From Eubacteriales bacterium (GTDB lineage: Bacteria; Bacillota; Clostridia; Oscillospirales; CAG-272): a stretch of DNA of 64,000 bases. Position numbers and translations under genes: made by a program. The stretch is from NCBI GenBank assembly GCA_045660295.1, contig JAZRDN010000030.1, positions 6,577 through 70,576 on the forward strand. Reading direction: 5' to 3'. The notes beneath the pieces are model-generated. The model saw nothing but the letters and a program-made list of their open reading frames with translations, was not told the DNA's origin and made no database searches. This document shows positions 9,793 through 51,978 of the stretch, in pieces (positions within the stretch are counted from its first letter, which is position 1; each line of letters begins with the position of its first letter).

Positions 9793-10006
9793 AAAAACAT
9801 CCTCCTGAAAATGAATATACAAACTCAAATTATATTATACACCAAATTTTAGTTTTTTTCAAGTGCTTTTAATAAAAAAGAAGAAAACGAAAAAATTAAA
9901 AATCAAACGCTCAAAAAAATAATTTTGTCGAATTTTGTTGACACGAAGGCTTATTTATGGTATTATTGTGCGTGAACTGTCAAAAAATAACAAAAGAGGA
10001 TTCGAA

Positions 10007-11980
10007 ATGAAAAGAATTTTTATGACGTTGGTTTTGGTGGCGTTGCTTTTTGCCATGTGCGGATTTGCGGTTTTTGCTGAATCTGAGATCGATGTTAGCC
10101 AAAAGGTCGAAACACGCGGCAACGTAACCGTGTTCGAGGCGGTTTCGAACTATGCGGATGCCTATAACGGAGAAGGGCATATTCCGTTAATTTCAGTTGC
10201 AAGAACAAGCGCTGAGGTCAGTGCGGTGCTCGATCTGCTTTTTGTAAACGCGGATGATATGGCTTTTGAAATCAAAAGCATAACGGGAGAATACAAAAAG
10301 CTTTCAGATAACAAGGGGAACAAACTTGTGCTTGACGCGAAAACAACTCTCGCCGTGATATATGACGACAACACGGGACTTTTAAGATATTATATCAATG
10401 GCAGAGTAGCATATCACGGTGAGGATATCGAGGCGCTTGCTCACGTCGCAACTGCATATAACAGCTTTTATTTGTTTGACTGTGACAGCGAAAGCATAAG
10501 TATTAACGAAGAGCTTCTGCGAGACACGAATATCTATAATCTAACCTCATCAGGTACAGCAGAGATAGTAGCTTTTCAGGAGCACGATCTGGAAAACAAA
10601 ATAAGGTTGATCGCCGGCGTTGATATGCCTTGGTATTCCGCGGTGGGATTTAGCGTCCAGGTATTTGAGGACGGCGTGTCCAAAAGCGAAAAGCATGTCT
10701 CCTCAACCGCTATATTTGACAGCGTTTTCGCCGATGACAGGACGGTGTATGCTTCAGATTACGGATATGAATATTTTGCCGCGCTCGAAATATTTGACGT
10801 GAGCCTGAACGGCGAAAAAGAATATTACGTCGTAGCCAGACCGTATACCGATGTAGGCGGTGTAAAGCATTACGGAACGGCGGTTAAAATAAACGTAGAT
10901 AAAGAAGGCTACATTTTTGATAAAAGTTGCGTTGTAAAAAACGGAAATGATAATGTTTTTTCTTGTTCGGACGGCGTTTTGATATCAGAAGGCGCGTTTT
11001 TGATGAGCGAAAACAGCTCGTATGTTTCTATTGAGGTTAATTGTTACGGAAAAGTCTATCTTGATGTTTCCGCGGTGTCGGACTCGGTGTTAAACGTATA
11101 CGCGGATAACGTTCTTGTAAATACTCTATCGCTGACCGCTGGGCGCAACAATGTTCCAATTGCCTCTTTGGAACAGGGAAAACACACCGTTAAGGTAGAA
11201 AAATGTGACGGCGAGTATACTAAAATTCACAGTGTTACGTATTTTGAGGTTCCGCACACCCATACAGTTTCTGAGACAGCTGAGTGGACTATGGCGGATG
11301 GCGCGTTTTATACCGTATGTACCGAATGTGGCGCTCAAGTGAAAATGACAGAATCGGCAAATCCGTCCTTTATGCTTACCTTCGACAAATCTGTAGACGA
11401 AGAAGCCGCGGAATATGAGGGTTTCAGTGTGGTATCGCCTAACCAATATACAGTGGGGAAGGATTCCGACGGCGATAAAGCGCTTGTGGCAGGTGTAAAT
11501 TATTTCTACATAGACGTTGAGCAATACAAGTTGGCCTCGATGCCGTTTTATACAGTTTCGTTTGATCTTACAGTGTCCCAAGAGGGAGATGCGGGAATGG
11601 AAATCTCTCTGTTCACGCTTATTTCAAATTACAGAAACGGCACAAACGTAGCGAATACTTCCTCAAATCACGCTTATTTCTTCAAATACATTCAAAAAAG
11701 CTCTAAGCTATCCACCATAAAGATAAGCGGTGCTACGAACAAGCTGAATGACAGAAACAGTATATCAATAAATCTCGGCACGCAGTATAAAGTAACCGTG
11801 ATCGTCAACACGCTTGCGTGCAGCGCGCATGTATTCGTTGACGGAAAATACATAGGAAAATCGGAAAAAGCTCTTGTAGACGTTACCTCTGCCACAACTG
11901 TGTATCCGTCGTTTAAATTCAATGACGGAGGAAACTGTTGTCCCATTTTTGACAATTTCAAAATCACCGAGCTTAAATGA
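10007..11980 (+). CDS. Large secreted protein of unknown function (two LamG/concanavalin-like modules suspected)
   Basis: ATG at 10007 follows RBS AGAGGA. The signal peptide is MKRIFMTLVLVALLFAMCGFAVFA|ES. The motifs YYINGRVAY and VFVDGKYIG are reminiscent of LamG-type jelly rolls. Confidence 0.6.
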   Translation: MKRIFMTLVLVALLFAMCGFAVFAESEIDVSQKVETRGNVTVFEAVSNYADAYNGEGHIPLISVARTSAEVSAVLDLLFVNADDMAFEIKSITGEYKKLSDNKGNKLVLDAKTTLAVIYDDNTGLLRYYINGRVAYHGEDIEALAHVATAYNSFYLFDCDSESISINEELLRDTNIYNLTSSGTAEIVAFQEHDLENKIRLIAGVDMPWYSAVGFSVQVFEDGVSKSEKHVSSTAIFDSVFADDRTVYASDYGYEYFAALEIFDVSLNGEKEYYVVARPYTDVGGVKHYGTAVKINVDKEGYIFDKSCVVKNGNDNVFSCSDGVLISEGAFLMSENSSYVSIEVNCYGKVYLDVSAVSDSVLNVYADNVLVNTLSLTAGRNNVPIASLEQGKHTVKVEKCDGEYTKIHSVTYFEVPHTHTVSETAEWTMADGAFYTVCTECGAQVKMTESANPSFMLTFDKSVDEEAAEYEGFSVVSPNQYTVGKDSDGDKALVAGVNYFYIDVEQYKLASMPFYTVSFDLTVSQEGDAGMEISLFTLISNYRNGTNVANTSSNHAYFFKYIQKSSKLSTIKISGATNKLNDRNSISINLGTQYKVTVIVNTLACSAHVFVDGKYIGKSEKALVDVTSATTVYPSFKFNDGGNCCPIFDNFKITELK

Positions 11981-19793: not shown

Positions 19794-19803
19794 GGTGTAA
19801 TTT

Positions 19804-21804
19804 ATGGGAAAAATTAATGTTTTGTCTTTTGCCGTAGCCAATCTGATCGCGGCGGGCGAGGTTGTTGACCGTCCCGCATCGGCTGTAAAAGAAATGCTTG
19901 AAAATTCAATAGATGCCGGCGCTACCAGAATTACGGTTGAAATTCAGAACGGCGGAGTTTCCTTTATCCGCGTTTGCGATAACGGATGCGGAATAGAGCC
20001 CGATGACCTTCCCATTGCCGTGCGCCGACACGCAACCAGTAAGATAAAGGTGGCAGAGGATCTTGAAAGCGTTGAGACGCTGGGATTCCGCGGCGAGGCT
20101 CTTGCGGCTATCGCCTCGGTCTCAGATATGCGCATTATTTCCAAAACTGCCGATGCCGAATACGGCGCAATGCTTGAGGTAAAGGCGGGAAATATTATCG
20201 CGCTTACCGAGCGTGCTTGCGCCACCGGAACTACAATTATCGTTGAAAATCTGTTCGCCAATGTTCCCGCAAGAAGAAAATTTCTCAAGCGAGACGTTAC
20301 CGAGGCGGCGGCGGTCAGTGTGTGGGTGGAAAAAATCGCCCTCTCTCAACCGTCTATCGCTATAAAGCTTATCGTTGACGGTTCTGTAAAATTTGAGACC
20401 GCAGGTGACGGCGAGCTGAAAAGCGCTATATATTCGATATACGGGCGCGATTTCGCGAGCAAGCTGATTCATGTTTGCACGGAAATCGAGGGCGTTGAAG
20501 TCAAGGGGTATATAGGTCGATCAGATAATTTTAAATCCAACCGTAACTTCCAGAATTTCTTTATAAATAAGCGCTTTATTAAGAGTAAGACAGCTACGGC
20601 TGCACTTGAGCAAGCGTATAGCTCTTATATCCCAAGTGAAAGATTTCCATGCTGTGTGCTCGATATAGGCGTAAGTCCTCGTTCAGTAGACGTTAACGTT
20701 CACCCCGCCAAGCTGGAGGTTAAATTTTCCAACGAAAAGCCAATCTTTGATGCAGTATACTATACTGTAAAGAACGCGCTTGAGGACGATATCACAAAGC
20801 CTGCCCTTGAATTTGAGCGCAAAAAGCCGCAATCGGAATTTAAAAATCGCTCAAATGCTTTTGTGGCAGTAGAGGATGAGCGCAGAACATTTGAGAATAT
20901 AAAAATATCGTTTTCGGATGCTCCTAACGTACAGACATCGGCTCGGGATCTTGATACGCCTATTGTCACAGTTCCCCCGCTTCAATCTCCGTATCAAACG
21001 GCACGCAACGATAATGTTCCGCAAAAGGTTCAGGTAACACCTGCGCACAATGAGAAAACACCGCATCCCGAAGAAGCGCCCACATCGGCGGTAAAACACG
21101 AGTCAAAAGCCGAAAATACATTGTCAAATGCCGCAAATGTAGCACAGAGCAGTGAAAAAACGGCAAATACACAGCCAATACCTAAAGAAGCCCAAGAGCC
21201 TACTGTTGCTCGCAGAGTAAGCAAGGTTGATTATAAACTGCTTGGCGAGGCATTTAACTCATATCTCTTTGTTGAGTACGGAGACAAAGTGTTGGTCATA
21301 GACAAACACGCCGCGCATGAACGTATCATATTTGAGGATCTTCGCGCCAAGCTTGCGGCGACCGAAACATATTCCCAGCTTATAATGATTCCCGTAGAGG
21401 TAATGCTTACGTCTGATGAGATACAAGCGCTTGAGAGCTATCGCGAGGAAATAGAAAAGATTGGATTCGCGCTCGAATTCAAGAAGCATTCCGTGCTTGT
21501 GAGCGCGCTTCCAAACAATATATCTGTCAACGCCATTGACGAGATGATAATAACCTTTGCCGACAGAATAATAAACGAAACGGGAAGCGTGGAAATTTCA
21601 AAAAATATAATTTTTGAAAGAGCGCTTTATCAGGCATCGTGCAAGGCGGCAATAAAGGCGGGCAGAGAATATCCCAAGGAGCATATCGAGTGGCTTGTAG
21701 ACAAGCTTATGCAATTGCAAGATATAACCTTTTGTCCTCATGGAAGACCCATTGCAATCGAGATAAGCAAAAATCATCTCGACCATCAATTTGAAAGAAA
21801 ATAA
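19804..21804 (+). CDS. mutL: DNA mismatch repair endonuclease MutL
   Basis: GHKL ATPase motifs (EMLENSIDAG, GFRGEAL) are present. The C-terminal endonuclease motif DKHAAHERIIFE is also present. Confidence 0.95.
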   Translation: MGKINVLSFAVANLIAAGEVVDRPASAVKEMLENSIDAGATRITVEIQNGGVSFIRVCDNGCGIEPDDLPIAVRRHATSKIKVAEDLESVETLGFRGEALAAIASVSDMRIISKTADAEYGAMLEVKAGNIIALTERACATGTTIIVENLFANVPARRKFLKRDVTEAAAVSVWVEKIALSQPSIAIKLIVDGSVKFETAGDGELKSAIYSIYGRDFASKLIHVCTEIEGVEVKGYIGRSDNFKSNRNFQNFFINKRFIKSKTATAALEQAYSSYIPSERFPCCVLDIGVSPRSVDVNVHPAKLEVKFSNEKPIFDAVYYTVKNALEDDITKPALEFERKKPQSEFKNRSNAFVAVEDERRTFENIKISFSDAPNVQTSARDLDTPIVTVPPLQSPYQTARNDNVPQKVQVTPAHNEKTPHPEEAPTSAVKHESKAENTLSNAANVAQSSEKTANTQPIPKEAQEPTVARRVSKVDYKLLGEAFNSYLFVEYGDKVLVIDKHAAHERIIFEDLRAKLAATETYSQLIMIPVEVMLTSDEIQALESYREEIEKIGFALEFKKHSVLVSALPNNISVNAIDEMIITFADRIINETGSVEISKNIIFERALYQASCKAAIKAGREYPKEHIEWLVDKLMQLQDITFCPHGRPIAIEISKNHLDHQFERK

Positions 21805-29697: not shown

Positions 29698-31302
29698 TCA
29701 ATTCTTTATGTTTTTTATAATATTTTCGTAATAAAGTCCGTATTTTCTGGCAATGTCGCGGGCGTAGCTCTTTCCGTCAGGCTTTGCGCGCGTAATCTTG
29801 AACGACCGCTTTCCTTCCTCAATCCCCGCTACCAGAGTGTCGATAGGCGCTCCGCCCTGTGGAACTGTTTGTGCGTTTATAGCGTCTATCTCCGCCGCAA
29901 GCTCGTGCAGATGAGTAGAGAAAATACATCTGCAACCGTACATACTCAAGCCGCGCAAGACCTCGCTTGCGATATAGGAAGCCTCGTAAGAGCCTGTTGA
30001 GGAAAGTGACTCGTCAAGCAAAACCAGACTGGTTGGCGTAGTCGCGCTTAAAATTTCATTAAGTCGCGCACACTCCTCACCGAGACGCCCTTTGTCAATA
30101 GTATCGTCCGCTCCGGTGGGGAAGTGAGTAAATATCGCGTCAACGGGACTCATAACCGCCTCTTTTGCAGGAACAAACAAGCCAAGCTGAAGCATTGCCT
30201 GGGCAATACCAACCGCACACGTGATAACCGATTTTCCGCCGCGGTTTGGTCCTGTGAGAACGTATATCATGGCTTTTTCGTCAAAAATCATGTCGTTTGC
30301 GACTATTTCGTCCTCGATTTTTACCGCCACACATGGGTTGTATAAATCGGTAGCCTTAAAGGCTCGCGCATCCATCGTCTCGATTTTCGGAACGCACAAG
30401 TCGCACCCCTTTTCTTGTAAAACGCGAAGCGCGTCGGTTGCTTTTACCGTAAACTCAAACTCACCAAGCAGGTCGAGTAGGAAATTTGTGTTGTCAAGCA
30501 CATAGGACTTGACTATCTTTTTCCAAGAATGCAGAGACGACTTGTAAACATCGTTGATAGCCGAGTTGAAGGCAAGCGAAAGCGCGGTCTTTTGGTTTTC
30601 GTTTTGCTTTTTACCGAAGGGAACGAGACTTGCGATGCAAGTATATTCGTCGTCCTTAAAGCTGAGTCTCAAAATCTTCTCAATAACGTCGCCCGACTTA
30701 AATGATTCGGGATTTATCGAAAGCACTCCCGCTTCCTTGGGACGAAGCTGCGCGTCAAGGTTTACCCCGATAGTGACACTCTTTATTTCGCGAACTCGCG
30801 CGGTAAGCTCCGAGAGCTTACTGTTAAGCTCTTTGTAGTAATCGCTTTGAGCCAGCTCGATAATTCTGTCGGCAAACGCAGTAAAGGCTCGGCTTTTAAG
30901 ATTGTTGCGAATAGCCGAAAAGCCCTCGCTCAACAGGTCAATACACGAAATATAAAGCTCTATCTCAGTGATGCTGGAAAGATAAGAGTCGGTGTCACCG
31001 CTGTCGGCTTCAAGCCTACGAAGCTCCATTATATCGCCGAGTATCGGAATAAGTGAACCAAGAATATCCGAAATTTGGGGATTTTCCAGCATATCGCTGA
31101 AGGTCTCCATTCGATATTCGATAACCTCGCGGTCGGTGGTAAAATATTCCGAAAGCTCACTGTTGCGAAGATCTATAAAATCAAGCATTCCAAGTTCTTC
31201 AAGCACGAACATATCGATTTTAGGCAGATTTACGCCTTTATAATGATTTTGACGCGTCTCAAAGCTTGGATATATGAGAGAAAAATTACTCAAATCCATC
31301 AT
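29698..31302 (-). CDS. MutS-family ATPase paralog (core/clamp plus ATPase domains only)
   Basis: Walker A GPNRGGKS, Walker B LVLLDESLSSTG and FSTHLHEL are present. There is no GxFxE mismatch-binding N-domain and no C-terminal Smr or nuclease extension. Confidence 0.8.
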   Translation of the reverse strand: MMDLSNFSLIYPSFETRQNHYKGVNLPKIDMFVLEELGMLDFIDLRNSELSEYFTTDREVIEYRMETFSDMLENPQISDILGSLIPILGDIMELRRLEADSGDTDSYLSSITEIELYISCIDLLSEGFSAIRNNLKSRAFTAFADRIIELAQSDYYKELNSKLSELTARVREIKSVTIGVNLDAQLRPKEAGVLSINPESFKSGDVIEKILRLSFKDDEYTCIASLVPFGKKQNENQKTALSLAFNSAINDVYKSSLHSWKKIVKSYVLDNTNFLLDLLGEFEFTVKATDALRVLQEKGCDLCVPKIETMDARAFKATDLYNPCVAVKIEDEIVANDMIFDEKAMIYVLTGPNRGGKSVITCAVGIAQAMLQLGLFVPAKEAVMSPVDAIFTHFPTGADDTIDKGRLGEECARLNEILSATTPTSLVLLDESLSSTGSYEASYIASEVLRGLSMYGCRCIFSTHLHELAAEIDAINAQTVPQGGAPIDTLVAGIEEGKRSFKITRAKPDGKSYARDIARKYGLYYENIIKNIKN

Positions 31303-35028: not shown

Positions 35029-37173
35029 ATGATCGTAATTATAGCGGAAAAACCAAGCCTTGGACGCAACATTGCCGACGCCATCGGCGGCATGTCCAAA
35101 AGAAACGGTTATCTTGAAGGAAACGAATATATTGTAACGTGGGCTTTTGGTCACCTTTTTTCGCTTGCCGATATTGAGGATTATTCAGCAACGCCCATCA
35201 CAGATAAGCGGTGGACACTTAACAATCTTCCTTGCTTTCCCGAGGAGTTCAAATTTGAATTAAAAAAGGGAAGCGACAAAAAGGTAGATAGCGGTGTAGT
35301 CCGTCAGTTTGAGATTCTAAAATCACTCTGCAACCGTAACGATGTTGATACGATAGTGAATGCGGGAGACGCTGACCGAGAGGGTGAGATAATAGTCAGA
35401 CTCTGTGTTAGCCATGCGTTACAGTCTCAAAAGTCCTTTAAACGCTTGTGGCTGCCTGACCAAACTCCCGAAACTATACGTAAAGCTCTTTCCGAAATGA
35501 AAGATGAAAATGAATACAACGCGCTTGCCAACGAGGGCTTTGCGCGCACTTATATAGATTGGCTTTACGGGGTTAATCTTACCCGTTACGCCACACTCAA
35601 AACGGGAACGCTCCTTCGTGTAGGGCGCGTAATCGTTCCCATAGTCAAAGCAATATATGACCGCGACATGGCCATAAAAAACTTTGTTCCTGGGAAATAT
35701 TACGCTATCGTGAGCAAAGCTGAAACCAACGGTGAGGTAGTTGAACTCACAAGCAAGCAAAAATTTGAAAACAATCAATACGAGGATGCTCTTGCGTTTT
35801 GCGCCAAGTATAACGCAGTAGATGCCATCGTCAAATCTGTAAAAAAGAAAAAAGATACCCTTGCGCCCGGTAAGCTTTACTCTCTGTCGAAGCTACAAAA
35901 CGTGCTGGGTAAAAAATACAAAATGTCAATGGCAGAGAGCCTTGAAATAGTTCAAAGGCTTTACGAGCAGGGTTATCTGACCTATCCTCGAACCAACTCG
36001 GAATATCTTGCTACCGCCGAGAAGGATAAGATAAGTAAAATTATAGACAACTGTAAAAAGCTTGGATATCCCGTAGAGCTTAAGGTCAAAAAAACAATTT
36101 TTGACGATTCTAAGATAGAATCACACTCGGCGTTGACACCTACATACAAAATCCCAGACAAAAATAAATTAAGCGAAAAGGAAATGCAGGTGTATTCAAC
36201 TGTTTTCCGTCGCTTTATAGCGGTTTTCTGTGCCGAAGACTGTGTAATTGAAAAAACAGAAATAGTGGTTGCCGTTGGTGATTACGAAGATTTCCTGCTC
36301 AAAGGCACCGTTATTGTCGAGCCGGGCTGGACAAAATATGATGACAGCAGCCAAAAGGATAAGATACTTCCTAAGCTTTCAAAAGGAGATAAGGTCAATA
36401 CCGAATTTAAGCCAACCGAAAAAGAAACCACGCCGCCCAAGCACTATACCATAGAGACACTCAATAACTATTTGAAGAACCCCTTCAAGGAAGAAAAAAA
36501 CGCCGCCAAGGAAAAGGCAAAGGAGCAACAAGAGGATAACAGCTCCGAATTTGACGACGAGGAAGACTACAAGGCAATTTTCGAGGGTCTCGAGCTTGGA
36601 ACAGAGGCAACACGAACCGGTATTATTGATAACGCGCGAAAGAGCGAGTACATTCAACTGAAAAAGGACGTTTACACCATACTCCCGCAAGGAATATTCC
36701 TCATTGAAGCGCTTTCGAGGCTCAATATCATAATGGATAAGTACAAAACCTCACAAATGGGTCAGGCGCTCAAGAAAATATATCGCGGCGATATAACCAT
36801 TAAAGACGGCGTAACCCTCGCACAAAACGAAATAAGCGAGGTTTTCAATCACGAGGGGTCTACCGAAGCCACTCCGCTTGAAAAGGATATGAACACCGGA
36901 TGCTTTGGAGACATTGTCGGCAAATGTCCGATTTGCGGAAATGAAATCATGAGAGGAAAGTTTTATTACGGCTGTAAAGGATATAAAGAAGGCTGTACTT
37001 TCAAGGTCGGAATTTATATTTGCGGCCGTGCCATCTCGGTTTCTAACATGAAGCTTTTGCTTGAGCAAGGCAGAACATCAAAAATAGAAGGTTTCGTCTC
37101 CAAAAAGACAGGAAAAAGCTTTGACGGCAGACTAAAGCTCGAAAATGGCGAAGCAAAATTCGATTTCTCATAA
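35029..37173 (+). CDS. topB: DNA topoisomerase III
   Basis: Toprim motifs (IIAEKPS, DADREGE), the active-site Tyr context GYLTYPRTNS, and C-terminal Zn-finger motifs (CPICGNEI...YYGCKGYKEGC) are present. Confidence 0.9.
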   Translation: MIVIIAEKPSLGRNIADAIGGMSKRNGYLEGNEYIVTWAFGHLFSLADIEDYSATPITDKRWTLNNLPCFPEEFKFELKKGSDKKVDSGVVRQFEILKSLCNRNDVDTIVNAGDADREGEIIVRLCVSHALQSQKSFKRLWLPDQTPETIRKALSEMKDENEYNALANEGFARTYIDWLYGVNLTRYATLKTGTLLRVGRVIVPIVKAIYDRDMAIKNFVPGKYYAIVSKAETNGEVVELTSKQKFENNQYEDALAFCAKYNAVDAIVKSVKKKKDTLAPGKLYSLSKLQNVLGKKYKMSMAESLEIVQRLYEQGYLTYPRTNSEYLATAEKDKISKIIDNCKKLGYPVELKVKKTIFDDSKIESHSALTPTYKIPDKNKLSEKEMQVYSTVFRRFIAVFCAEDCVIEKTEIVVAVGDYEDFLLKGTVIVEPGWTKYDDSSQKDKILPKLSKGDKVNTEFKPTEKETTPPKHYTIETLNNYLKNPFKEEKNAAKEKAKEQQEDNSSEFDDEEDYKAIFEGLELGTEATRTGIIDNARKSEYIQLKKDVYTILPQGIFLIEALSRLNIIMDKYKTSQMGQALKKIYRGDITIKDGVTLAQNEISEVFNHEGSTEATPLEKDMNTGCFGDIVGKCPICGNEIMRGKFYYGCKGYKEGCTFKVGIYICGRAISVSNMKLLLEQGRTSKIEGFVSKKTGKSFDGRLKLENGEAKFDFS

Positions 37174-37216: not shown

Positions 37217-38908
37217 TTAGCCTCTCTTTGTTTCGGGATGAAGCTTGTCTGAGAGCTTCTTCATTACGAAGAGGAACGCAACAGTAACTACAACACCGAT
37301 TGCAAGACAGATAATCGCGTTCTGAACGAAGCCTGCGATTATGTACATTACAAACGAGATAGCCGCAACGCTGATCGCATAGGGAAGCTGTGTCGAAACG
37401 TGATTGAGGTGATTGCACTGACCGCCTGCGCTGGACATAATTGTTGTATCCGAAATGGGCGAGCAATGGTCTCCGCAAACCGCGCCTGCAAGGCAAGCCG
37501 ACATACCGATAATGAGTATCTCGCTTCCCACGGGGAAGATCGCGTTAACGATGGGAATAAGGATACCGAACGTACCCCAAGATGTTCCGGTCGCGAATGC
37601 AAGTACGCAAGCAACAAGGAAGATAACGGCGGGAAGGAAGTTAGCAAGACCTGCTGCAGCACCGCTCATAAGCTCGCCAACAAAGTACTTAGCGCCAAGA
37701 ATAGTTGTAATGTTCTTAAGACCTGTAGCAAAGGTAAGGATAAGAATTGCGGGAACCATTGCTATAAAGCCCTGAGGAACGCAATCCATTGATTCCTTAA
37801 ATGTTACAACCTTGCGAATTATCATATAGATAACAATGAAGATAAGTGAGAAGAGACCTCCCCAAGGAAGACCTATGGTCGCGTCGGTGTTGCCGAATGC
37901 GCCTATGAAATCACCTGCGCAATCTGTACCGCCCCAAGCGTCAACTCCAAAGAATCCGCCGACATAAACAAGAGCGATTACGCTTACGATGATAAGGAAT
38001 ACAATGGGAAGAACAAGATCCCAAACGCGACCGCGAGTAGAAGGTTCAACCTCTGCCACCTCTGCTTTGTCGCCCTCTGTATAAAGATCACCGTTTACGA
38101 TCGCATTGTATTCGTGTGTTCTCATCTTACCGTAGTCAAACTTCATAAGAGCAAGAGCAACTACGAACACAAGTGTGAGAAGAGAATAGAAGTTATAGGG
38201 AATAGCCATAACGAAAAGCTTAAGTCCCTGACCGTCTTCAGCGTACTGAGCAACTGCCGCAGCCCAGCTGGAGATGGGAGCAATCATACAAACGGGAGCC
38301 GCCGTAGCATCGATAATGTAGGAAAGCTTTGCGCGTGATATCTTGTGCTTGTCTGTTACGGGACGCATTACAGAGCCTACTGTAAGGCAGTTGAAATAGT
38401 CGTCGATGAAAATAAGCACACCGAGAAGGAACGTAGCAAGCTGCGCGCCTACTCTTGTCTTAATGTGTGTTTTTGCCCAGTTACCAAATGCAGCTGAACC
38501 GCCAGCCTTGTTTATAAGAGCCACGATAACTCCGAGCTCTACAAGGAAGATAAAGATTCCCGCAGTGCCCGAAACTGCATCGATGAGACCTGCGCCAACG
38601 GCAGTATCAAGTGATGCGGTTACAGAGAAATTGGAGGCGAGGAGTGCGCCGGAAACGATTCCGATAAAGAGGGAGCTGTAAACCTCTTTAGTAATAAGCG
38701 CGAGTCCGATTGCGATAATGGGAGGAACGAGAGCCCACCACGTACCGACAACCTCACTTGTTCCGCCACAGGTTTCACAGTCAGCAGCACCACTGCAATC
38801 GGGGCAGGGTACGGTACCCATAGCACCACCGGTTACGGCAGCAATGACAAGCAAAACGACGATAAGCGCAACAGCGACAGCGAGTGTGATCTTGGTTGTT
38901 TTTGTCAT
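37217..38908 (-). CDS. NhaC-family Na+/H+ antiporter-type transporter, probable lysine transporter (LysW-like) given its riboswitch
   Basis: 563-aa polytopic membrane protein with NhaC-like composition. It is preceded by an L-box leader. The N-terminus carries an extra TM helix and CPDCSGAADCETCGG. Confidence 0.8.
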   Translation of the reverse strand: MTKTTKITLAVAVALIVVLLVIAAVTGGAMGTVPCPDCSGAADCETCGGTSEVVGTWWALVPPIIAIGLALITKEVYSSLFIGIVSGALLASNFSVTASLDTAVGAGLIDAVSGTAGIFIFLVELGVIVALINKAGGSAAFGNWAKTHIKTRVGAQLATFLLGVLIFIDDYFNCLTVGSVMRPVTDKHKISRAKLSYIIDATAAPVCMIAPISSWAAAVAQYAEDGQGLKLFVMAIPYNFYSLLTLVFVVALALMKFDYGKMRTHEYNAIVNGDLYTEGDKAEVAEVEPSTRGRVWDLVLPIVFLIIVSVIALVYVGGFFGVDAWGGTDCAGDFIGAFGNTDATIGLPWGGLFSLIFIVIYMIIRKVVTFKESMDCVPQGFIAMVPAILILTFATGLKNITTILGAKYFVGELMSGAAAGLANFLPAVIFLVACVLAFATGTSWGTFGILIPIVNAIFPVGSEILIIGMSACLAGAVCGDHCSPISDTTIMSSAGGQCNHLNHVSTQLPYAISVAAISFVMYIIAGFVQNAIICLAIGVVVTVAFLFVMKKLSDKLHPETKRG

Positions 38909-38940: not shown

Positions 38941-39142
38941 AAAAAGCGCTGTAAAATACAGCGCTAATCATACAAGTGTACGATTGATAGCGCTCCACAA
39001 ACGTGACAGTACATAATATGTTTTACTATGCACCAGCAAAATGCGTCGGAAAACGCATCCGCTTCGGCGACTATTCCTTTCAAAGCCCCAACCTTTCCGA
39101 GTTATAACAGAGCTTCTACTTATAATAAATCGCACCTCTATC
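38941..39142 (-). promoter_or_regulatory. Lysine riboswitch (L-box) with intrinsic-terminator expression platform
   Basis: The minus-strand leader contains GATAGAGGTGCG, AAGTAG, CGGAAAGGTTGGGGC, AGTCGCCGAAGC, TTTGCTGG, ACTGTCA and GTGGAGCGCTATC in the order of the L-box conserved blocks. The hairpin AGCGCTGTA-TTT-TACAGCGCT plus TTTTT follows at 38941-38965. Confidence 0.8.
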
Positions 39143-39154
39143 AAAATCATATAT

Positions 39155-44751: not shown

Positions 44752-45222
44752 CTATTTTTTGATGGCTTCAAAAGCGGATTGAGATTCTTGCGGATCAATG
44801 ATAGTATATATTAAATAATTTCCAAATCGCTCGGACCTTGCGCCCGTAAATTTTGGATATTCACTCACATCATAAATTATACCGTTTTCAAATTCTTTTT
44901 TTGCGGTACTTAAATAGCTATCAATAATCGCCAAGCCCTTTTTAGCATCTTTAGCTGTCACAAATTTAAAAACGCCGAACTCATTAAAATTGGAACTTTC
45001 GTTACAGGTATATATTTTTCCTTCTTCAACGCCTACAAGCTCGCTGAAATAATTTTTAAGATAATATTCACTCACGTCGCAATATCCGAACTCTACAGGG
45101 GCATTTTCAATAATATCATTTACTATTTCATCGGTTTCCAAAAAAGAATAATCTACACTCTCACCGGAGCAGGACACGAGAACCATACAGGCTAAAAAAA
45201 CAATTATAAGCGTTTTTTTCAT
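44752..45222 (-). CDS. Lipoprotein of unknown function (DUF4358-like)
   Basis: The signal and lipobox sequence is MKKTLIIVFLACMVLVSC|SG. It is the last gene of a three-gene minus-strand operon. Confidence 0.55.
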   Translation of the reverse strand: MKKTLIIVFLACMVLVSCSGESVDYSFLETDEIVNDIIENAPVEFGYCDVSEYYLKNYFSELVGVEEGKIYTCNESSNFNEFGVFKFVTAKDAKKGLAIIDSYLSTAKKEFENGIIYDVSEYPKFTGARSERFGNYLIYTIIDPQESQSAFEAIKK

Positions 45223-45224
45223 AT

Positions 45225-46046
45225 TTATCCCCCGTAGCCGTGTGTTTTTATATAATCTATCACGGCTGTCAAGCCTAAGCGGTTAAGGTGTATTCCGTCG
45301 CCGCCGTTATCATATTCGGGAAGCAAATATCCCTCGTCGTTTTTTAACACTTCAGCAGTGTTCAGAAATTTAATGTCATATTCTTGGGCGATTTCATATA
45401 TCCAGCCGTTACACTCATCAATGCGTCTTGGCGTATAAGCGTTTATCTGACAGCTTTGGGAAACGGGAAAAAGCGATTGCAAAATAATCTTTGTATTTCC
45501 ATAGCTATCGTTTATGGAGTTGAGAAGCATTCGATAGCATTGCTTGAATTCATATTCGTTATAGTATGAAACGCCATTGTTAAGCCCCAAGGTTATTATC
45601 ATATATTCGGGCTTTTTCTGCCCAACCGCCTGTGCTACCGTAAGAGCTTCTCCCGTATCGGGGTAGTATATTTTGGCTTGCGCTATTGACGGAGACAGCG
45701 AAAGTGTACCTGCCGAAACCGTTTTTCCACCTGACATCATCGCGCCCGTCCACACTTGGCGTGTGTCAGTACCGCCCGACAGTACCCCATATCGCTGAAG
45801 CCCATAGGTAGTGGATTCTCCAAGGAAAATAATTTTATCAATATATTCCTGACCGTAATCCTCGGTCGCTCTCAGCATGTTTCCGTTGTCGTCAGCCAAA
45901 GCATCTACGCTTGGCGTGTCTGTTTCCTTGATATAATAATCCCCATTGTCAAAAAGCGGAAACATTATAAACAGAGCTACAAGCAGGGCAAACAGCGCTA
46001 ACAAAACAAAAAAAGAAATAATAAAGGAATTTAGCTTCTTTTCCAT
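45225..46046 (-). CDS. Membrane-anchored SGNH/GDSL-like hydrolase
   Basis: It has an N-terminal TM helix and SGNH blocks FLGESTTYG, ITLGLNNG and GDGIHLN. Confidence 0.7.
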   Translation of the reverse strand: MEKKLNSFIISFFVLLALFALLVALFIMFPLFDNGDYYIKETDTPSVDALADDNGNMLRATEDYGQEYIDKIIFLGESTTYGLQRYGVLSGGTDTRQVWTGAMMSGGKTVSAGTLSLSPSIAQAKIYYPDTGEALTVAQAVGQKKPEYMIITLGLNNGVSYYNEYEFKQCYRMLLNSINDSYGNTKIILQSLFPVSQSCQINAYTPRRIDECNGWIYEIAQEYDIKFLNTAEVLKNDEGYLLPEYDNGGDGIHLNRLGLTAVIDYIKTHGYGG

Positions 46047-46124
46047 ATCTCACCGTAATTCATTGGACTAAACATGCGGAAGCATATTCAACTTTATTAT
46101 TTCTTTTTTGTTGTTACATATACT

Positions 46125-46541
46125 TTAGAATACGTTTTTGTATTCGGATTTTTTCTCGTTCTTACGTTTCTTCTTCGCCGTTGCAGCCATGTAAAAGCCA
46201 ACGCAGACAGCATACAAAACAACGTAGAGCGAAAAAACTATCATCGCACTTCCCGAAGAAACCCCTGCGCCGTGAGGCAAATATATAAACAAAACCAACG
46301 CGAGAGTCACAAGCGTAAAATGAACGAACAGCTTTATCACTCCGCTTAAATTTGTGTGTTTGACAACATTATTCGCAAACGAAATAACAAGCGCGAGAGG
46401 GAACATAAGGAATACCGACACAGGATTCATACCCAAACCGCCATAAATGCAGATTACCAGCAAGGAATACAGAAGTATAATAGCCGAAAAAACATAACAT
46501 GCAGAGAGCAATGCTCTTTTAAACAATGTACTCAACGTCAT
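46125..46541 (-). CDS. Small integral membrane protein (about 4 TM helices)
   Basis: The 138-aa protein is strongly hydrophobic with a basic C-terminal tail. RBS AAAGGTG. Confidence 0.55.
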   Translation of the reverse strand: MTLSTLFKRALLSACYVFSAIILLYSLLVICIYGGLGMNPVSVFLMFPLALVISFANNVVKHTNLSGVIKLFVHFTLVTLALVLFIYLPHGAGVSSGSAMIVFSLYVVLYAVCVGFYMAATAKKKRKNEKKSEYKNVF

Positions 46542-46679: not shown

Positions 46680-46708
46680 TTGACAAGCGATAAGAGCGAT
46701 GATATAAT
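46680..46708 (+). promoter_or_regulatory. Sigma-A consensus promoter of the TerB/ATPase/helicase operon
   Basis: TTGACA, 17 nt, TATAAT (perfect consensus), 38 nt upstream of the ATG at 46747. RBS GAGGGGG. Confidence 0.6.
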
Positions 46709-46746
46709 AGAAAGATAAGAAGAATGATAATGAGAGGGGGATTTTT

Positions 46747-48354
46747 ATGAAAAACAAGAACGATCTTGACACTTTTTGGGATTTGAGTGAACTTATACCG
46801 CCCCAAAAAGAAAATAAAAATCCTGTTCGAAAATCTATTTCAACTGTTGAAATGGTTGTCTCAGAACAACAAGAAAAAAGCACATCGGAAAACATAATAA
46901 GCCCTCAAATATTAAGTCGAGGACAAAAACGCGAATTGCCGCCTACCGTGGAATATGAAGGATTTTCTCATTTCATAAAAAAGGTCAAAATTCTCAATTG
47001 GAAAAGCGACTGTATATATTATGATCTTTTTGGTCGCCACGCGCTTTACTACAAAAAGCTCAAGCCTCACAAATGTGAGCCGGTACATTTCTTCTCCTAC
47101 ATGCCACAATATTCTCAAATGAACCAAAAACAGATGGATTGGTACGTTTGGTGGAGAGAACAGGTAAACAACGGTATATATCCCGATACCGACCATCCGT
47201 ATATACTTCTCTATGTCTTTGAGCTTATAAATCTGAGCACCGAGGAAAGTGCCGCAAGAGACCTTGATATCTTAATAAATCTCTGGGCGAACTATCATGA
47301 AATTTATCCTCAGCTCAATCAAACACTCGGAGAATGGATTTGTGATTTTTCTTTGATTTATAAAATACCTATCCGGTTTCCCGACAAGCGTTTGACCCAT
47401 GAGATGATAAGCCGTGTTACCATACCGGAAATATTTTACTCTTTTGATTTTTCCGACACCGGGTTACTGGCTAAATTTTTATTATCCTACTGTAATTCAT
47501 ACAACTACCGAAGGAGCAAATTTTACGATAACACAACCGCTCCGTTATACGAGAAACATATATTAGCCGCTTTCGAAGCGGTTATGAAAAAAATCGAACT
47601 CGGCTCAAAAATCTTTACCGAATCTGTAAAAAGCAGCTCAAAAATCGCTTTTATGGGAGCGCTTTGTTCGTCGCCCAAGACTAAAAAGAGGATAGAAATA
47701 AGCTATGCTTCTATTGCTCTTGAAACCGATCTTCGCGTGTATATTTCCGATATTATCAAATATTCCGAAAACAGAATAAGGAATGTTGTCGGAATTCGTT
47801 CGAGACTTAACGTAAAGCACATGGACAACGAGGCAAAATCTATCTTGGACAACTATTTTTCATCAGTTTTCGGCAAAAGCTCCGAAAGCACGTTAGTTCC
47901 CGAATACGAAAAGCTTTACGATTCAAAAGCCGAGCCGTTTTCAATCGAAACCGCAAAAACGATAGAACAACGCTCATGGGATGTCACGCAAAAGTTGGTC
48001 GAGGCATTTGAGGAATACGTGGAGACAGAAGAAATACCGGAGGAGGTTTCCTCGGTGTCGATCAGTGCTACGTTGCCCGCAGATAATGCCACGCAAACAG
48101 CGACCGAAAGCGCGTCTGACGGAGCTTCAAGCTTTTACAAGGCGATTTCCAAATATTCCGAATTGTTTGAGCTTATAAAAAACGAAAAATATCCTGAGCA
48201 GATCAACTATATCAAATCAAACAAGCTTATATTTGAAGCCGTTGCGGATGAAATAAACGAGGCGGCCGCCGAGATATTCGGAGATATCCTGATTGAGGAA
48301 TCGGATATCGGATACAAAATAATTGACGATTACAAAGATATTATTATGGAATAA
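46747..48354 (+). CDS. TerB-N / TerB-C domain protein (Shango SngA-like)
   Basis: Residues ~113-165, HFFSYMPQYSQMNQKQMDWYVWWREQVNNGIYPDTDHPYILLYVFELINL, fit my memory of the TerB-N signature. The C-terminal LIFEAVADEINEAAAEIFGDILIEESDIGYKIIDDY fits TerB-C. An acidic linker lies between them. Confidence 0.75.
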   Translation: MKNKNDLDTFWDLSELIPPQKENKNPVRKSISTVEMVVSEQQEKSTSENIISPQILSRGQKRELPPTVEYEGFSHFIKKVKILNWKSDCIYYDLFGRHALYYKKLKPHKCEPVHFFSYMPQYSQMNQKQMDWYVWWREQVNNGIYPDTDHPYILLYVFELINLSTEESAARDLDILINLWANYHEIYPQLNQTLGEWICDFSLIYKIPIRFPDKRLTHEMISRVTIPEIFYSFDFSDTGLLAKFLLSYCNSYNYRRSKFYDNTTAPLYEKHILAAFEAVMKKIELGSKIFTESVKSSSKIAFMGALCSSPKTKKRIEISYASIALETDLRVYISDIIKYSENRIRNVVGIRSRLNVKHMDNEAKSILDNYFSSVFGKSSESTLVPEYEKLYDSKAEPFSIETAKTIEQRSWDVTQKLVEAFEEYVETEEIPEEVSSVSISATLPADNATQTATESASDGASSFYKAISKYSELFELIKNEKYPEQINYIKSNKLIFEAVADEINEAAAEIFGDILIEESDIGYKIIDDYKDIIME

Positions 48355-48364
48355 GGAAAAAATT

Positions 48365-49705
48365 ATGGAAAACAAAACTTCGCAAACAGTTCCAAGAAGA
48401 ATACTGTCATCTCTTATAACCTCGGTTTCTGCAGGCGTTGTTCCGCGTTCGGGAGCGCCTTATATGGCTATAGGAAGAAACGACGAAATCTCCGCATTGC
48501 TTGACGATCTTGAAAAAATAAGCGTGGGCGAGGGAAGAATGCGTTTCATAATAGGTAGATATGGAAGCGGAAAGAGCTTTCTTATCCAGCTCGTACGAGG
48601 ATACGCTCTTGAAAAGAATTTCATTACGTCGGACGCCGATCTTTCTCCCGAGCGAAGACTTTACGGTACTAACGGAAGCGGTCTTGCCACGTACAGGGAG
48701 CTTATCAAAAACATGGCGTCCAAGTCCTCGCCTGATGGGGGCGCACTTTCAAAAATCATATCAAAATGGATCGCAGGGCTTCGCGCCGAGCTTCTTGACA
48801 GCGGTATAAACGAGGACTCCCCCCTTTTTATGACCGAACTTCACCGCGCGGTGTCGTTAGCGATGAGGGATATTGAATTTCTTGTCGGCGGCTTTGACTT
48901 TTCCAAAACGGTAACCGAATTTTATCGCGCCTACATGGAAGGGGATGACGAAAAGCAAAGCGCTTGTCTGCGCTGGCTAAGAGGAGAGTTCAGTACAAAG
49001 ACTGAGGCTAAGCAGGCTCTCGGATATAACGTATCAACTATCGTAAACGATGACAACTGGTACGATTATATCAAGCTTTGGGCGGCGCTCGTCCGAAAAA
49101 TGGGTTACAGAGGTCTTGTGATTTTCATAGACGAGTGTGTAAATCTTTACAAGATACCCAACCGAGTAAGCCGCGAAAACAACTACGAAAAGATTCTTTC
49201 CATGTTCAACGATACCTTGCAGGGGCACGCCGAGGGTTTGGCTATCGTGTTTGGCGGAACTCCTCAGTTTCTTGACGACACAAGGCGCGGGCTTTTCAGC
49301 TACGAGGCTCTCAGAAGCCGTCTCTGTGACAGCAAGTATGAGATTGCGGGAGTTAAAAACCTAAACAATCCTATAATCAGACTTGTTCGTTTGAGCGACA
49401 ATGAGCTTTTCGCGCTTCTCAAACGAATAACAGATTTGTTTTATCAGTATTATTCCTGCGAACTCAATATCACAGACGAAAATATAGCCGATTTTCTTAA
49501 AATAAATATGCAAAAAGCAGGCGCTGACTCTATGGTGACTCCTCGTGAAATGATAAGAGACTACATGACTGTGCTTAATATTTTGCTTCAAAACCCGAGT
49601 GTTAATTTTGATACTATCGTCAAATCCCAGAACAACGATAGTACCGAGCAGGAAAAGACAAAATCACAAATAAAAACAATTTCCGCAGACGATATAATTT
49701 TTTAG
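48365..49705 (+). CDS. DUF2791/BrxC-BrxD-like P-loop ATPase (Shango SngB-like)
   Basis: The ATG at 48365 is 10 nt after the upstream stop. Walker A GRYGSGKS lies at nt 48554-48577 and Walker B is GLVIFIDE. The N-terminal RRILSSLITSVSAGVVPRSG region is typical of this family as I remember it. Confidence 0.75.
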   Translation: MENKTSQTVPRRILSSLITSVSAGVVPRSGAPYMAIGRNDEISALLDDLEKISVGEGRMRFIIGRYGSGKSFLIQLVRGYALEKNFITSDADLSPERRLYGTNGSGLATYRELIKNMASKSSPDGGALSKIISKWIAGLRAELLDSGINEDSPLFMTELHRAVSLAMRDIEFLVGGFDFSKTVTEFYRAYMEGDDEKQSACLRWLRGEFSTKTEAKQALGYNVSTIVNDDNWYDYIKLWAALVRKMGYRGLVIFIDECVNLYKIPNRVSRENNYEKILSMFNDTLQGHAEGLAIVFGGTPQFLDDTRRGLFSYEALRSRLCDSKYEIAGVKNLNNPIIRLVRLSDNELFALLKRITDLFYQYYSCELNITDENIADFLKINMQKAGADSMVTPREMIRDYMTVLNILLQNPSVNFDTIVKSQNNDSTEQEKTKSQIKTISADDIIF

Positions 49706-49715
49706 GGGATAAACG

Positions 49716-51944
49716 ATGAATAAAGCCGAGCAACTTTTTGAAAGATTTCCCGACTATATAAAAAATTTCATATACGAAAACTCATGGACTGCATTGCGTG
49801 ACGTTCAAATAGCGGCGGCAGAATCTATTTTTGAAAGCGAAAACAATCTGCTTTTGTCATCTTCGACTGCCAGCGGAAAAACCGAAGCAGCGTTTTTTCC
49901 AATACTCACAACTCTTTGCGAAGATCCGTCAAGTAGTATTGCGGTAATCTATATCGCCCCCATAAAAAGCCTTATAAACGACCAGTTTGAAAGGCTTGAT
50001 CTATTACTTGAGGAAAGCGAAATCCCCGTGTTTCATTGGCACGGAGACGTTTCGCCCGCTCACAAGCGCAAACTACTCCAAGACCCACGCGGAATACTTC
50101 AAATCACCCCCGAATCCCTGGAGTCAATGCTTATCAACCGTTCTAACGATATCGTAAGGCTTTTCCATGACTTACGGTATATCGTAATTGACGAGATACA
50201 CACGCTTATCGGAAGCGATCGCGGGAACCAGGTAATATGCCAGCTTCAGCGAATCTCAAGACTCATCGGTCATTCGCCGCGCAGAATCGGTTTGTCCGCA
50301 ACCATAGGCGATACGGAGGCGGTAGGGAAGTGGCTTTCCTTGGGAAGCGGACGGGGAATTGATATCCCGATAATTCCGCAAACCAAATTGACGTGGCGTT
50401 TGGGGCTTGAGCATTTCTTTATACAAAACAAAAGCTTTTCTCAATCCTCGCCGGAGTTAACTCGCTCCACGGAAAATACAGCGACATTTGATGCGGGATT
50501 TGAGTATATGTATGACTGTGTAAACCATAAGAAGGCACTTGTTTTCTCAAATTCGAGAGAAGAAACCGAATATGTCACCGCTACCTTTCGCCAGATTGCC
50601 AAGGCGCGCCGCGATGCCGATATTTTTCTTATTCATCACGGCAATCTTTCAGCAAGTCTGCGTGAGGAAGCCGAGGCGAAAATGAAAGAAGAACTTCCCG
50701 CCGTCACCTGTGCTACCGTAACGATGGAGCTGGGAATTGACATCGGAAAGCTCGAGCGAATACTCCAATACAACTCTCCTCATAGCGTTTCAGCGTTTCT
50801 TCAACGTCTCGGACGCTCGGGGCGGCGTGGAACCCCACCCGAGATGATGATGGTGTTTCGCGAGGACGAACCTCTGCCTAACGCTCCCTTGCCTCAGCTT
50901 ATTCCATGGGAGCTTATACGCGCCATTGCCGTAATTCAGTTATATATTGAGGAACGATTTATCGAGCCGCCCATAGTCAAAAAAATGCCTATAAGTCTTT
51001 TGTTCCACCAGACGTTAAGCATTCTCTCCTCCGGCGGAGAGCGAACGCCCAAGGAGCTTGCGGAGATGATTCTCGCCTTGCCGCCGTTTGCAAATATCGA
51101 AAAAGAGGACTACCGCGAGTTGCTTGTCTCTATGATAAACAATGAATTTCTCGAATTCACCGACGAAGGCGGTCTTATAGTGGGTATGGAAGGCGAAAAG
51201 ATAATAAACAGCTTCAAATTCTATGCGGTTTTCAAAGATAGCGAGGACTTTACAGTTCGCTGCGCGTCTGATGAAATCGGAACCATAACCACTCCGCCAC
51301 CCGTTGGCGACAGGTTGGCTCTCGCGGGCAGAGTTTGGGAGGTTGAGGAACTTGATACCTCACGCCGACTGGTATACGTACATCAAGTGGATGGAAAAAT
51401 GGAAGTCTCTTGGCCCGGTGATTACGGTGAGATACACACGAAAATTCTTGAAAGAATGAAACGCGTGCTCGAGGAAGATACTGTTTATCCTTATCTCAAG
51501 GAAAACGCGCGTCACCGTCTCGACGTTGCGAGAACTCTCGTCAAAAACACAAAAATCAAAGACAGAAATCTTGTAAGCCTGGGCGGATATACAAAATGTT
51601 TATTCCCATGGCTTGGCACAAAATCATTCCGCACACTGGTGAGATATTTGAAATTCAAAGCACAGGAGCTTGGAATAAGCAATATTTCCTATGACGGCTG
51701 TAATTATATTACCTTCCGTTTGGATAAGTGTGATGAAAAGACATTTTGCAGACTTTTGATGCAGGATATCGAAAGCCGAGGAATTAATTGTAGAAATTTA
51801 GTAGGAAGCGGCGAAACGCCTATAACAGACAAATACGACATTTATATTCCTACAAATCTGCTTCAAAAGGCATACGCCACCGACAAGCTGGATGAAAAAG
51901 AAGTAATCGAACGAATAAAAGCATTATATAACCAATTTAATTAA
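49716..51944 (+). CDS. Superfamily-2 DEAH-box helicase, Lhr-like (Shango SngC-like)
   Basis: Helicase motifs are I TASGKT (GKT at nt 49875-49883), Ia YIAPIKSLINDQ, II VIDEIHTL, III LSATIGD and VI FLQRLGRSGRRG. About 310 aa follow the core. The start is 10 nt after the upstream stop. Confidence 0.85.
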   Translation: MNKAEQLFERFPDYIKNFIYENSWTALRDVQIAAAESIFESENNLLLSSSTASGKTEAAFFPILTTLCEDPSSSIAVIYIAPIKSLINDQFERLDLLLEESEIPVFHWHGDVSPAHKRKLLQDPRGILQITPESLESMLINRSNDIVRLFHDLRYIVIDEIHTLIGSDRGNQVICQLQRISRLIGHSPRRIGLSATIGDTEAVGKWLSLGSGRGIDIPIIPQTKLTWRLGLEHFFIQNKSFSQSSPELTRSTENTATFDAGFEYMYDCVNHKKALVFSNSREETEYVTATFRQIAKARRDADIFLIHHGNLSASLREEAEAKMKEELPAVTCATVTMELGIDIGKLERILQYNSPHSVSAFLQRLGRSGRRGTPPEMMMVFREDEPLPNAPLPQLIPWELIRAIAVIQLYIEERFIEPPIVKKMPISLLFHQTLSILSSGGERTPKELAEMILALPPFANIEKEDYRELLVSMINNEFLEFTDEGGLIVGMEGEKIINSFKFYAVFKDSEDFTVRCASDEIGTITTPPPVGDRLALAGRVWEVEELDTSRRLVYVHQVDGKMEVSWPGDYGEIHTKILERMKRVLEEDTVYPYLKENARHRLDVARTLVKNTKIKDRNLVSLGGYTKCLFPWLGTKSFRTLVRYLKFKAQELGISNISYDGCNYITFRLDKCDEKTFCRLLMQDIESRGINCRNLVGSGETPITDKYDIYIPTNLLQKAYATDKLDEKEVIERIKALYNQFN

Positions 51945-51950
51945 AATTAT

Positions 51951-51978
51951 GGAGTTGTGTAAAAGCAACTCCATTTTC
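51951..51978 (+). terminator. Terminator of the three-gene operon
   Basis: GGAGTTG-TGTAAAAG-CAACTCC followed by ATTTTCGTT, 7 nt after the helicase stop. Confidence 0.55.

Follow-up and report, generated by a model that had tools for sequence, protein, structure and literature searches.

A window of 64,000 nucleotides (nt) from an Eubacteriales bacterium of the Oscillospirales lineage CAG-272 (assembly GCA_045660295.1, contig JAZRDN010000030.1, positions 6,577 to 70,576 of the forward strand) encodes three adjacent co-directional genes, sngA, sngB and sngC, which we analysed as a candidate Shango anti-phage operon. The window denotes the whole stretch of DNA analysed, and all coordinates refer to it. 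The operon had been proposed from the letters of the DNA and their open reading frames (ORFs), without database searches; this proposal is called the sequence-only reading below. The operon comprises the following features, with protein lengths in amino acids (aa).

46680–46708, + strand: sigma-A-type promoter, TTGACA, a 17-nt spacer and TATAAT with a TG extended −10
46709–46746, + strand: short 5' leader with a (G)ATAAG element (46714–46719) and a Shine-Dalgarno sequence (46734–40)
46747–48354, + strand: sngA, TerB_N/TerB_C protein, 535 aa, no transmembrane helix
48365–49705, + strand: sngB, BrxC_BrxD (DUF2791) P-loop ATPase, 446 aa, Walker A GRYGSGKS (K70), Walker B VIFIDE (D256/E257)
49716–51944, + strand: sngC, Lhr/BrxHI-like superfamily 2 (SF2) DExH helicase, 742 aa
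51949–51974, + strand: intrinsic terminator hairpin, 10-bp stem followed by UUUUCGUU (U-run)

The genes were separated by gaps of 10 nt each (48355–48364 and 49706–49715). These coordinates agreed base for base with the sequence-only reading, whose quoted peptide strings were all found in the translations and whose Walker A lysines (K70 in the second ORF, K55 in the third) were correctly placed. The numbering of SngB and SngC residues was verified against pairwise alignments with the proteins of the Escherichia coli KTE113 system. A mechanical ORF call had started sngB at a TTG codon at 48323, 14 codons further upstream. We discarded this start and adopted the ATG codon at 48365 instead, because the Shine-Dalgarno sequence AAGGA lies 8 nt upstream of the ATG, the orthologues begin there, and the Pfam match starts from residue 9. 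Good Shine-Dalgarno sequences also preceded sngA (GAGGGGG, 46734–40) and sngC.

A promoter scan of the 10 kb between 44 and 54 kb yielded the predicted perfect promoter as its sole 12/12 consensus match. The elements TTGAC and TG-n-TATAAT were unchanged in 10 orthologous loci from the two clades of relatives described below, and the surrounding intergenic DNA was not alignable. Just past the −10 element, near the predicted transcription start, the motif (G)ATAAG/ATAAC recurred in the eight clade-1 loci of the alignment (L001, L002, L006, L008, L009, L014, L016 and L028), the remainder of the leader being variable. This element could be an operator or reflect a constraint on the initially transcribed sequence. 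At the other end, RNA folding gave the terminator hairpin (recognized earlier as 51951–51972) a stability of −14.2 kcal/mol (z = −5.75), which none of 200 shuffled sequences reached, and a U-run follows it. With a consensus promoter, three closely packed genes with their own ribosome-binding sites and a terminator, sngABC is a single transcription unit.

SngA matched the Pfam family TerB_N (7.3e-19, 68.8 bits; cut-off 25) and fell slightly under the gathering cut-off of TerB_C (3.3e-5, 24.6 bits; cut-off 26.3). Among the 58 homologues aligned with the window copy, TerB_N was matched by all and TerB_C by 55, and the alignment with the PADLOC SngA model (E 1.1e-40) covered residues 95–534 of window SngA. 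We therefore consider the TerB_C module real: the assignment of both domains in the sequence-only reading was supported, TerB_C being borderline in the window copy and clear in the family. A TerB domain proper (PF05099) was not found with Pfam in SngA or its 58 homologues, and the N-terminus and middle region of SngA had no Pfam match. The alignment revealed an invariant N-terminal peptide (D8-x-F10-W11-D ... L16-x-P18; aa 8–18) in front of a variable linker. An AlphaFold2 model built on the 58 sequences had a mean pLDDT of 82.3, with values above 90 across most of the core. It consisted of a short N-terminal helix, a disordered linker (approximately residues 20–65), a mostly helical ordered body (66–424), an acidic disordered linker (about 425–457) and a compact TerB_C module (458–535). 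Foldseek detected no fold relative of this model in the PDB (best E 0.9), and a sequence search retrieved no solved structures for SngA or SngB. The SngA family is large, with 3199 clusters (50% identity) at E up to 1e-3 and 962 at 1e-30.

SngB matched the Pfam family BrxC_BrxD (PF10923) over profile positions 1–413 of 414 (8.6e-151), which confirmed the assignment of the second ORF, with its GRYGSGKS and VIFIDE motifs, as a DUF2791/BrxC-BrxD-like ATPase. SngC carried intact helicase motifs (I, K55; II, DEIH, 159–162; III, SAT, 194–196; VI, QRLGRSGRRG, 363–372) and matched DEAD (4e-28) and Helicase_C (3e-16), and its fold was Lhr-like, as predicted. Beyond the helicase core it contained a winged helix (~426–498), a beta-barrel (~512–557) and an alpha+beta C-terminal domain (~596–742); in Pfam, the C-terminal half gave only a weak WH_Lhr match (0.0038). 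The same domain order, winged helix, beta-barrel and alpha+beta C-terminal domain, is described for BrxHI (PMC12839542). The nearest solved structures by sequence were those of MrfA/YprA and Lhr (6znp, 7e-31; 5v9x, 5e-29). The SngC model (pLDDT 70.7) had its best fold match in Mycobacterium smegmatis Lhr (5v9x; E 1.3e-20, TMq 0.55) over the whole length, with MrfA next.

In PADLOC, the best matches of the three proteins were the full-length SngA, SngB and SngC models, as expected for the Shango-type triad that had been proposed. The SngB model (1e-163) was followed at a distance by BrxD (1.2e-48), and the SngC model (1.8e-238) by BrxHI (3.4e-124). NCBIfam named none of the three proteins, its BrxD, Lhr-type and ligase-associated DExH models all scoring far under their cut-offs. 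SngB reached 164 bits with the BrxD equivalog model (cut-off 350), and SngC reached 200.8 with TIGR04121 (cut-off 850), 190.6 with NF010338 (849) and 104.1 with NF007284 (1496). We thus rejected SngC as an equivalog of Lhr, the ligase-associated DExH helicase or MrfA, with which it has the fold in common. For the validated E. coli system, approximately the first 400 residues of each protein were available for comparison (supplement of Millman et al.), a range that excludes the TerB_C part of the E. coli protein; over these residues the window proteins were 39% (SngB) and 38% (SngC) identical to their KTE113 counterparts. Judged by every sequence-level criterion, the locus is an intact operon of the Shango family (sngABC), an already catalogued system.

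Millman et al. suggested that Bunzi and Shango, both TerB-containing systems, monitor the membrane. In such a system, SngA would sense a membrane perturbation caused by the phage and then activate SngB and SngC, and validated KTE113 SngA indeed starts with a hydrophobic helix (KD(19) hydropathy 2.07). For the window copy this mode of sensing is quite improbable. The highest KD(19) value was 0.96 in SngA and no segment of the three proteins exceeded 1.17; SngA, SngB and SngC have no transmembrane segment. The window copy is wholly cytosolic, which makes membrane surveillance unlikely, and SngA has TerB_N and TerB_C in place of a TerB domain proper. A small multi-pass membrane protein (138 aa) is encoded next to sngA, in a conserved divergent unit (44752–46541, − strand) with a GDSL lipase and a DUF4358 lipoprotein-like gene. 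This unit was kept in the trio-less relatives L013, L015, L017 and L018, and is therefore a neighbour of the operon rather than a component of it. A perfect 18-nt A/T-rich inverted repeat (46009–46026 and 46092–46109, arms 65 nt apart) spans the junction between the small membrane protein gene and the GDSL lipase gene.

Related loci came from metagenome-assembled genomes labelled Eubacteriales, Clostridia or Oscillospiraceae, originating from human, deer and other guts. The genome scan gave 13 loci, among which the window's own species was unrepresented. A metagenome scan based on the GDSL alignment gave 12 loci, none of which represented a new orthologous site; L031 is a duplicate of L018. 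The exact SngA of the window was absent from the contig index searched. In a first clade of relatives, the trio occupied the orthologous site, flanked on one side by the small membrane protein/GDSL/DUF4358 unit and on the other by a polysaccharide deacetylase (PDA) gene. The SngA identity to the window copy at this site was 80% (L002–L005), 57% (L001/L012), 45% (L006/L007), 44% (L014), 42% (L028), 40% (L016), 38% (L008) and 37% (L009). Small local insertions were present at the site in L016, L006/L007, L008 and L028, and in L009 the linkage of the trio to its flank was kept despite a rearranged wider neighbourhood. The order sngA-sngB-sngC was intact wherever the whole operon was present (L001–L003, L006–L010, L014, L016, L025, L026, L028–L030), including the plasmid loci L043 and L044. 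The sequence-only reading had named a lack of TerB hits, of a DUF2791 hit or of synteny as findings that would speak against it; each was examined, and none was observed.

The slot between sngC and the deacetylase gene held differing insertions (L006:15246–16181, L008:15244–21475 and L028:11256–14902), with contents that varied by species: a class I methyltransferase, or a block of AraC, MBL-fold, enolase-superfamily and SDR genes. Gene gain is tolerated more readily on this side than within the operon.

Several lines of evidence indicated that the operon is old at this site. The species that share the site have IspE proteins merely 47–65% identical. Neighbour-joining trees of SngA, SngB and SngC had the same topology as those of GDSL, DUF4358, HtpG and PDA. 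When the window was compared with L002, its closest relative, the synonymous divergence (dS) of the sng genes (0.76–1.10) matched that of the flanks (0.63–0.93). The ratio of nonsynonymous to synonymous divergence (dN/dS) in this pair was 0.029 for SngB and 0.028 for SngC, next to 0.029 for HtpG and 0.073 for IspE. SngA was the fastest-evolving subunit, at approximately four times the rate of SngB and SngC, and its dN/dS of 0.113 was comparable to that of GDSL and PDA. Identity to the more distant L009 was 73% for SngC and 69% for SngB (GlyRS 78%, TldD 76%, TGT 84%, MutL 60%). Because the same site is used across species, the trees are congruent, dS values match and divergence resembles that of housekeeping genes, the operon appears to be a long-resident, vertically inherited element in a wide range of uncultured gut Clostridia.

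The operon was also lost on occasion. In L017 and L018 the site was cleanly empty, with the deacetylase gene directly beside the small membrane protein gene (intergenic distance ~185 bp), and in L013 and L015 other genes stood in place of the trio. Trees of the flanking genes place these four genomes within clades that carry the trio, implying that it was lost independently at least twice. As it was lost cleanly in nested relatives, the trio is dispensable and not essential. Loss in some close relatives might suggest that the window copy is itself an inactive relic, a decaying leftover of an old acquisition. This is extremely improbable: the reading frames are all intact, the catalytic motifs are complete, and the signals for expression (promoter, ribosome-binding sites, terminator) are either conserved or intact. 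The selection data (dN/dS 0.03–0.11 at dS ~0.8–1.1) effectively refute it. The trio is under strong purifying selection at a fixed chromosomal site, with occasional clean loss.

A second clade (L010, L025–27, L029–30) carried the trio at another fixed site, near nrdR, holB and mutS. There sngC was always followed by one or two small ORFs, one of 109 aa and, in L010 and L025–27, another of 86–122 aa on the opposite strand; nrdR and a DUF5131 gene came next. Between the window and L025 of this clade, SngC was 69% and SngB 66% identical (MutS 70%, MiaB 64%). A DUF5131 gene was also found approximately 4 kb from the trio on a Clostridium estertheticum plasmid (L043:16535–17407), and a recurrent association of the trio with DUF5131 is possible.

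These patterns raise the alternative of a housekeeping or domesticated role. The trio would then serve mainly as a cellular DNA-transaction module. In the manner of Lhr and MrfA, it might process stalled forks, R-loops or damaged DNA, for example, after loading by an ORC/Cdc6-like ATPase, and any anti-phage activity would be secondary or absent. The shared site in species with such divergent IspE proteins is consistent with such a role, as are the congruence of the sng trees with those of GDSL, DUF4358, HtpG and PDA, the agreement of dS between operon and flanks, and the dN/dS of SngB and SngC at the level of HtpG. The divergence of SngC tracks that of GlyRS, TGT and TldD within the first clade and that of MutS and MiaB between clades, where SngC identity was 66–69%. 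The invariant consensus promoter, the position of the second-clade site beside nrdR, holB and mutS, and the repair helicases Lhr and MrfA as nearest solved relatives point the same way. A DNA-processing complex was reportedly the original prediction for the TerB_N/C-BrxD-Lhr triad, made by Anantharaman et al. in 2012. In contrast, the clean loss on at least two occasions in nested relatives speaks against an essential function, and SngC stays far from the repair-helicase equivalog cut-offs (200.8 vs 850; 190.6 vs 849). Homologues resist phages in two species and travel on Firmicutes plasmids with mobile and defence genes, and a fast-evolving SngA suits a sensor under shifting selection. On balance, we consider a mainly cellular role rather unlikely. 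In evolutionary terms, the trio could be an ancient chromosomal operon, passed on vertically, that mainly serves the cell by loading a helicase where forks stall, R-loops form or DNA is damaged, and from which the mobile Shango systems of Proteobacteria and plasmids were exapted; conversely, a defence system may have been domesticated. This reading, too, we would call unlikely.

Outside this lineage the trio looks mobile. A SngB/BrxD homologue, of less than 60% identity, was carried by 690 plasmid records. The trios on C. estertheticum and Bacillus thuringiensis plasmids adjoined genes for a relaxase, insertion sequence (IS) transposases, an integrase, an HNH endonuclease and other helicases. 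On IMG/VR viral contigs, no relatives of clostridial SngC were found with the two patterns used.

We favour as probable that the trio forms a constitutively expressed, cytosolic nucleic-acid machine with a role in defence or against mobile elements. Constitutive expression is suggested by the invariant consensus promoter. A defence role is favoured because relatives of the system protect E. coli and Pseudomonas aeruginosa PA14, plasmid trios occur with mobile genes, and the trio is dispensable. The validated Shango systems, that of E. coli KTE113 (Millman et al. 2022) and that in cDHS1 of P. aeruginosa PA14 (Johnson et al. 2023), reduced the plating of several phages 10–100 fold, a modest effect. 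For the window copy, we infer an anti-phage role from homology only.

A number of observations weigh against a defence role. A phenotype is known solely for the KTE113 and PA14 systems and for no Clostridia copy. Window SngA had no BLASTP-detectable similarity to the validated KTE113 SngA, and the two proteins differ in architecture, the E. coli protein having 769 aa and an N-terminal transmembrane helix and the window protein 535 aa and a predicted cytosolic location. The slow evolution of SngB and SngC, on a par with that of HtpG, GlyRS or MutS, is unusual for genes in an arms race. None of the hallmarks of a defence island (integrase, transposase, another defence system, a tRNA junction or flanking repeats) was seen near the operon. 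The guanine-cytosine content (GC) climbs from ~0.36 to 0.49 along the operon, within the range of the neighbouring genes (~0.35–0.48) and with no island signature. The literature searched contained no report of complex formation, a loading step or a substrate for any Shango.

The sequence-only reading had described the trigger and mechanism of Shango as unresolved, and the literature searched indeed contained no mechanism, only the modest protection and the suggestion of membrane surveillance. BrxD is classed as an ORC/Cdc6-type AAA+ protein and a possible loader or activator of BrxHI (PMC12839542), and SngC, BrxHI, DruE and DpdJ form one defence-associated helicase clade (PMC12278908). We hypothesize that SngB, as an ORC/Cdc6-type AAA+ protein, and SngC, as an Lhr-like 3'-to-5' translocase or helicase, would constitute a conserved motor like that of BrxD and BrxHI. 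Driven by ATP, SngB might place SngC on its nucleic-acid substrate or switch it on there; the substrate could be chosen by the DNA-binding domains of SngC itself or by SngA. SngA would be the adaptor or sensor, a role suggested by its status as the fastest-evolving subunit, its invariant N-terminal peptide and its two disordered linkers. The ordered TerB_N core may recognize the trigger or target, and the flexibly tethered FWD peptide and/or TerB_C may bind the motor or control it. Acting on intermediates of foreign replication or recombination, SngC would unwind them or displace their bound proteins, and the replication of the phage or plasmid would be blocked. Because neither a nuclease nor a toxin domain was detected in the operon, it is predicted to interfere directly, or by recruiting host nucleases, rather than to kill the host.

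The remainder of the window was in keeping with the housekeeping neighbourhood and Clostridia-like host described in the sequence-only reading. Upstream of the operon lie genes for HtpG, an AI-2E-family transporter and IspE, followed by the divergent DUF4358/GDSL lipase/small membrane protein unit. Downstream are the PDA gene and those for a DUF624 membrane protein, a SpoU methyltransferase and the sporulation protein SpoIIID, the last of which marks the host as a sporulating organism. Further genes encode a gyrase/topoisomerase IV A subunit, MutS, MutL, MiaB, TGT, TldD/PmbA, GlyRS, UxaC and a type IA topoisomerase, and a lysine riboswitch is present. Insertion as a mobile element was rejected, as the operon is not flanked by direct or inverted repeats, the sole tRNA lies at 62.8 kb, and no integrase or transposase is nearby. 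A defence island was likewise rejected: the sole strong PADLOC match among the 39 other proteins of the window (DpdF, 2.4e-65) was the type IA topoisomerase. That gene (35029–37173, + strand, 714 aa) has Toprim, Topoisom_bac and Toprim_Crpt domains and is conserved in the relatives. Its DpdF match covers only the N-terminal domain of the 1499-position model, a false defence positive and a trap for automated annotation. Five weaker PADLOC matches in the window (mad3, 2.9e-30; AriA; TmtA; mad8), whose ORFs were not traced, formed no system.

Some further features were recorded elsewhere in the window. The lysine riboswitch (38980–39148, − strand, 96.7 bits) lies upstream of an NhaC-like gene of the Na+/H+ antiporter family (37217–38908, − strand), which was kept in L001 and L002 and presumably encodes a lysine-regulated transporter. 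A 681-aa ORF with a TTG start (9935–11980, + strand) had no Pfam or PADLOC match at E up to 1e-5. A 533-aa protein (29698–31302, − strand) matched MutS domain V only, and is a MutS2-/MutS-related ATPase without mismatch-binding domains; it is separate from the canonical MutS-MutL pair at 17205–21804.

By itself, identification of the operon as Shango leaves current understanding unchanged; what it contributes is the unusual way in which the operon has evolved. A 'defence' operon fixed at one site, with a conserved consensus promoter and constraint at the housekeeping level, is rare, and bears on the vertical persistence of defence and on a possible cellular role of BrxD-BrxHI-type motors. The cytosolic 535-aa SngA, the lack of an island or mobile context and the long vertical residence with this promoter set the operon apart from the characterized systems and make the lineage useful for studies of the mechanism. 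The data raise, rather than establish, a cellular role of the trio. If the trio were an ancient cellular operon, it would offer a natural system in which to study the Shango motor apart from the phage arms race. The Clostridia lineage carries a minimal, wholly cytosolic Shango, which argues against membrane sensing as a universal need. The pairing of a rich set of slowly diverging SngB and SngC sequences with a fast SngA lends itself to co-evolution analysis and the prediction of interfaces, and suggests that SngA is the specificity subunit.

Among known systems, type 2 BREX (Pgl) has the equivalent of SngB and SngC in its BrxD-BrxHI dyad, an ORC/Cdc6-type ATPase with an Lhr-like helicase bearing winged helix-turn-helix, beta-barrel and Lhr C-terminal-domain-like domains. 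The genes brxD and brxHI are described as tightly linked, as are sngB and sngC here. In the window, the other type 2 BREX partners are replaced by a TerB_N/TerB_C protein. An assignment to type 2 BREX was rejected, since PADLOC detected no PglX, PglZ, BrxC or PglW among the 39 other window proteins and the neighbours are unrelated. Lhr and MrfA/YprA have the DExH core, winged helix and C-terminal domains in common with SngC. The DUF1998/MZB domain of MrfA is absent from SngC, and SngC is always encoded with SngA and SngB, whereas Lhr and MrfA come without such partners. TerB-type proteins are recurrent in defence systems. The TerB_N and TerB_C modules of SngA, first defined in Ter-associated proteins, link it to Ter clusters, Bunzi and Dionysus, and no transmembrane or pore-forming partner of the kind was seen for the window trio. 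A Ter tellurite-resistance cluster was rejected, because there is neither a TerB proper (PF05099) nor a terZABCDE neighbourhood. The closest counterparts are the Shango systems of KTE113 and PA14, whose components and gene order are those of the window operon and which likewise have no nuclease or toxin domain. Location in a defence island, hotspot or mobile element is typical of Shango without defining it. Unlike the validated systems, the operon described here is a Shango outside any defence hotspot, island or plasmid, vertically inherited at a fixed housekeeping site, with SngB and SngC under housekeeping-grade constraint, and this is what it adds to the known examples.

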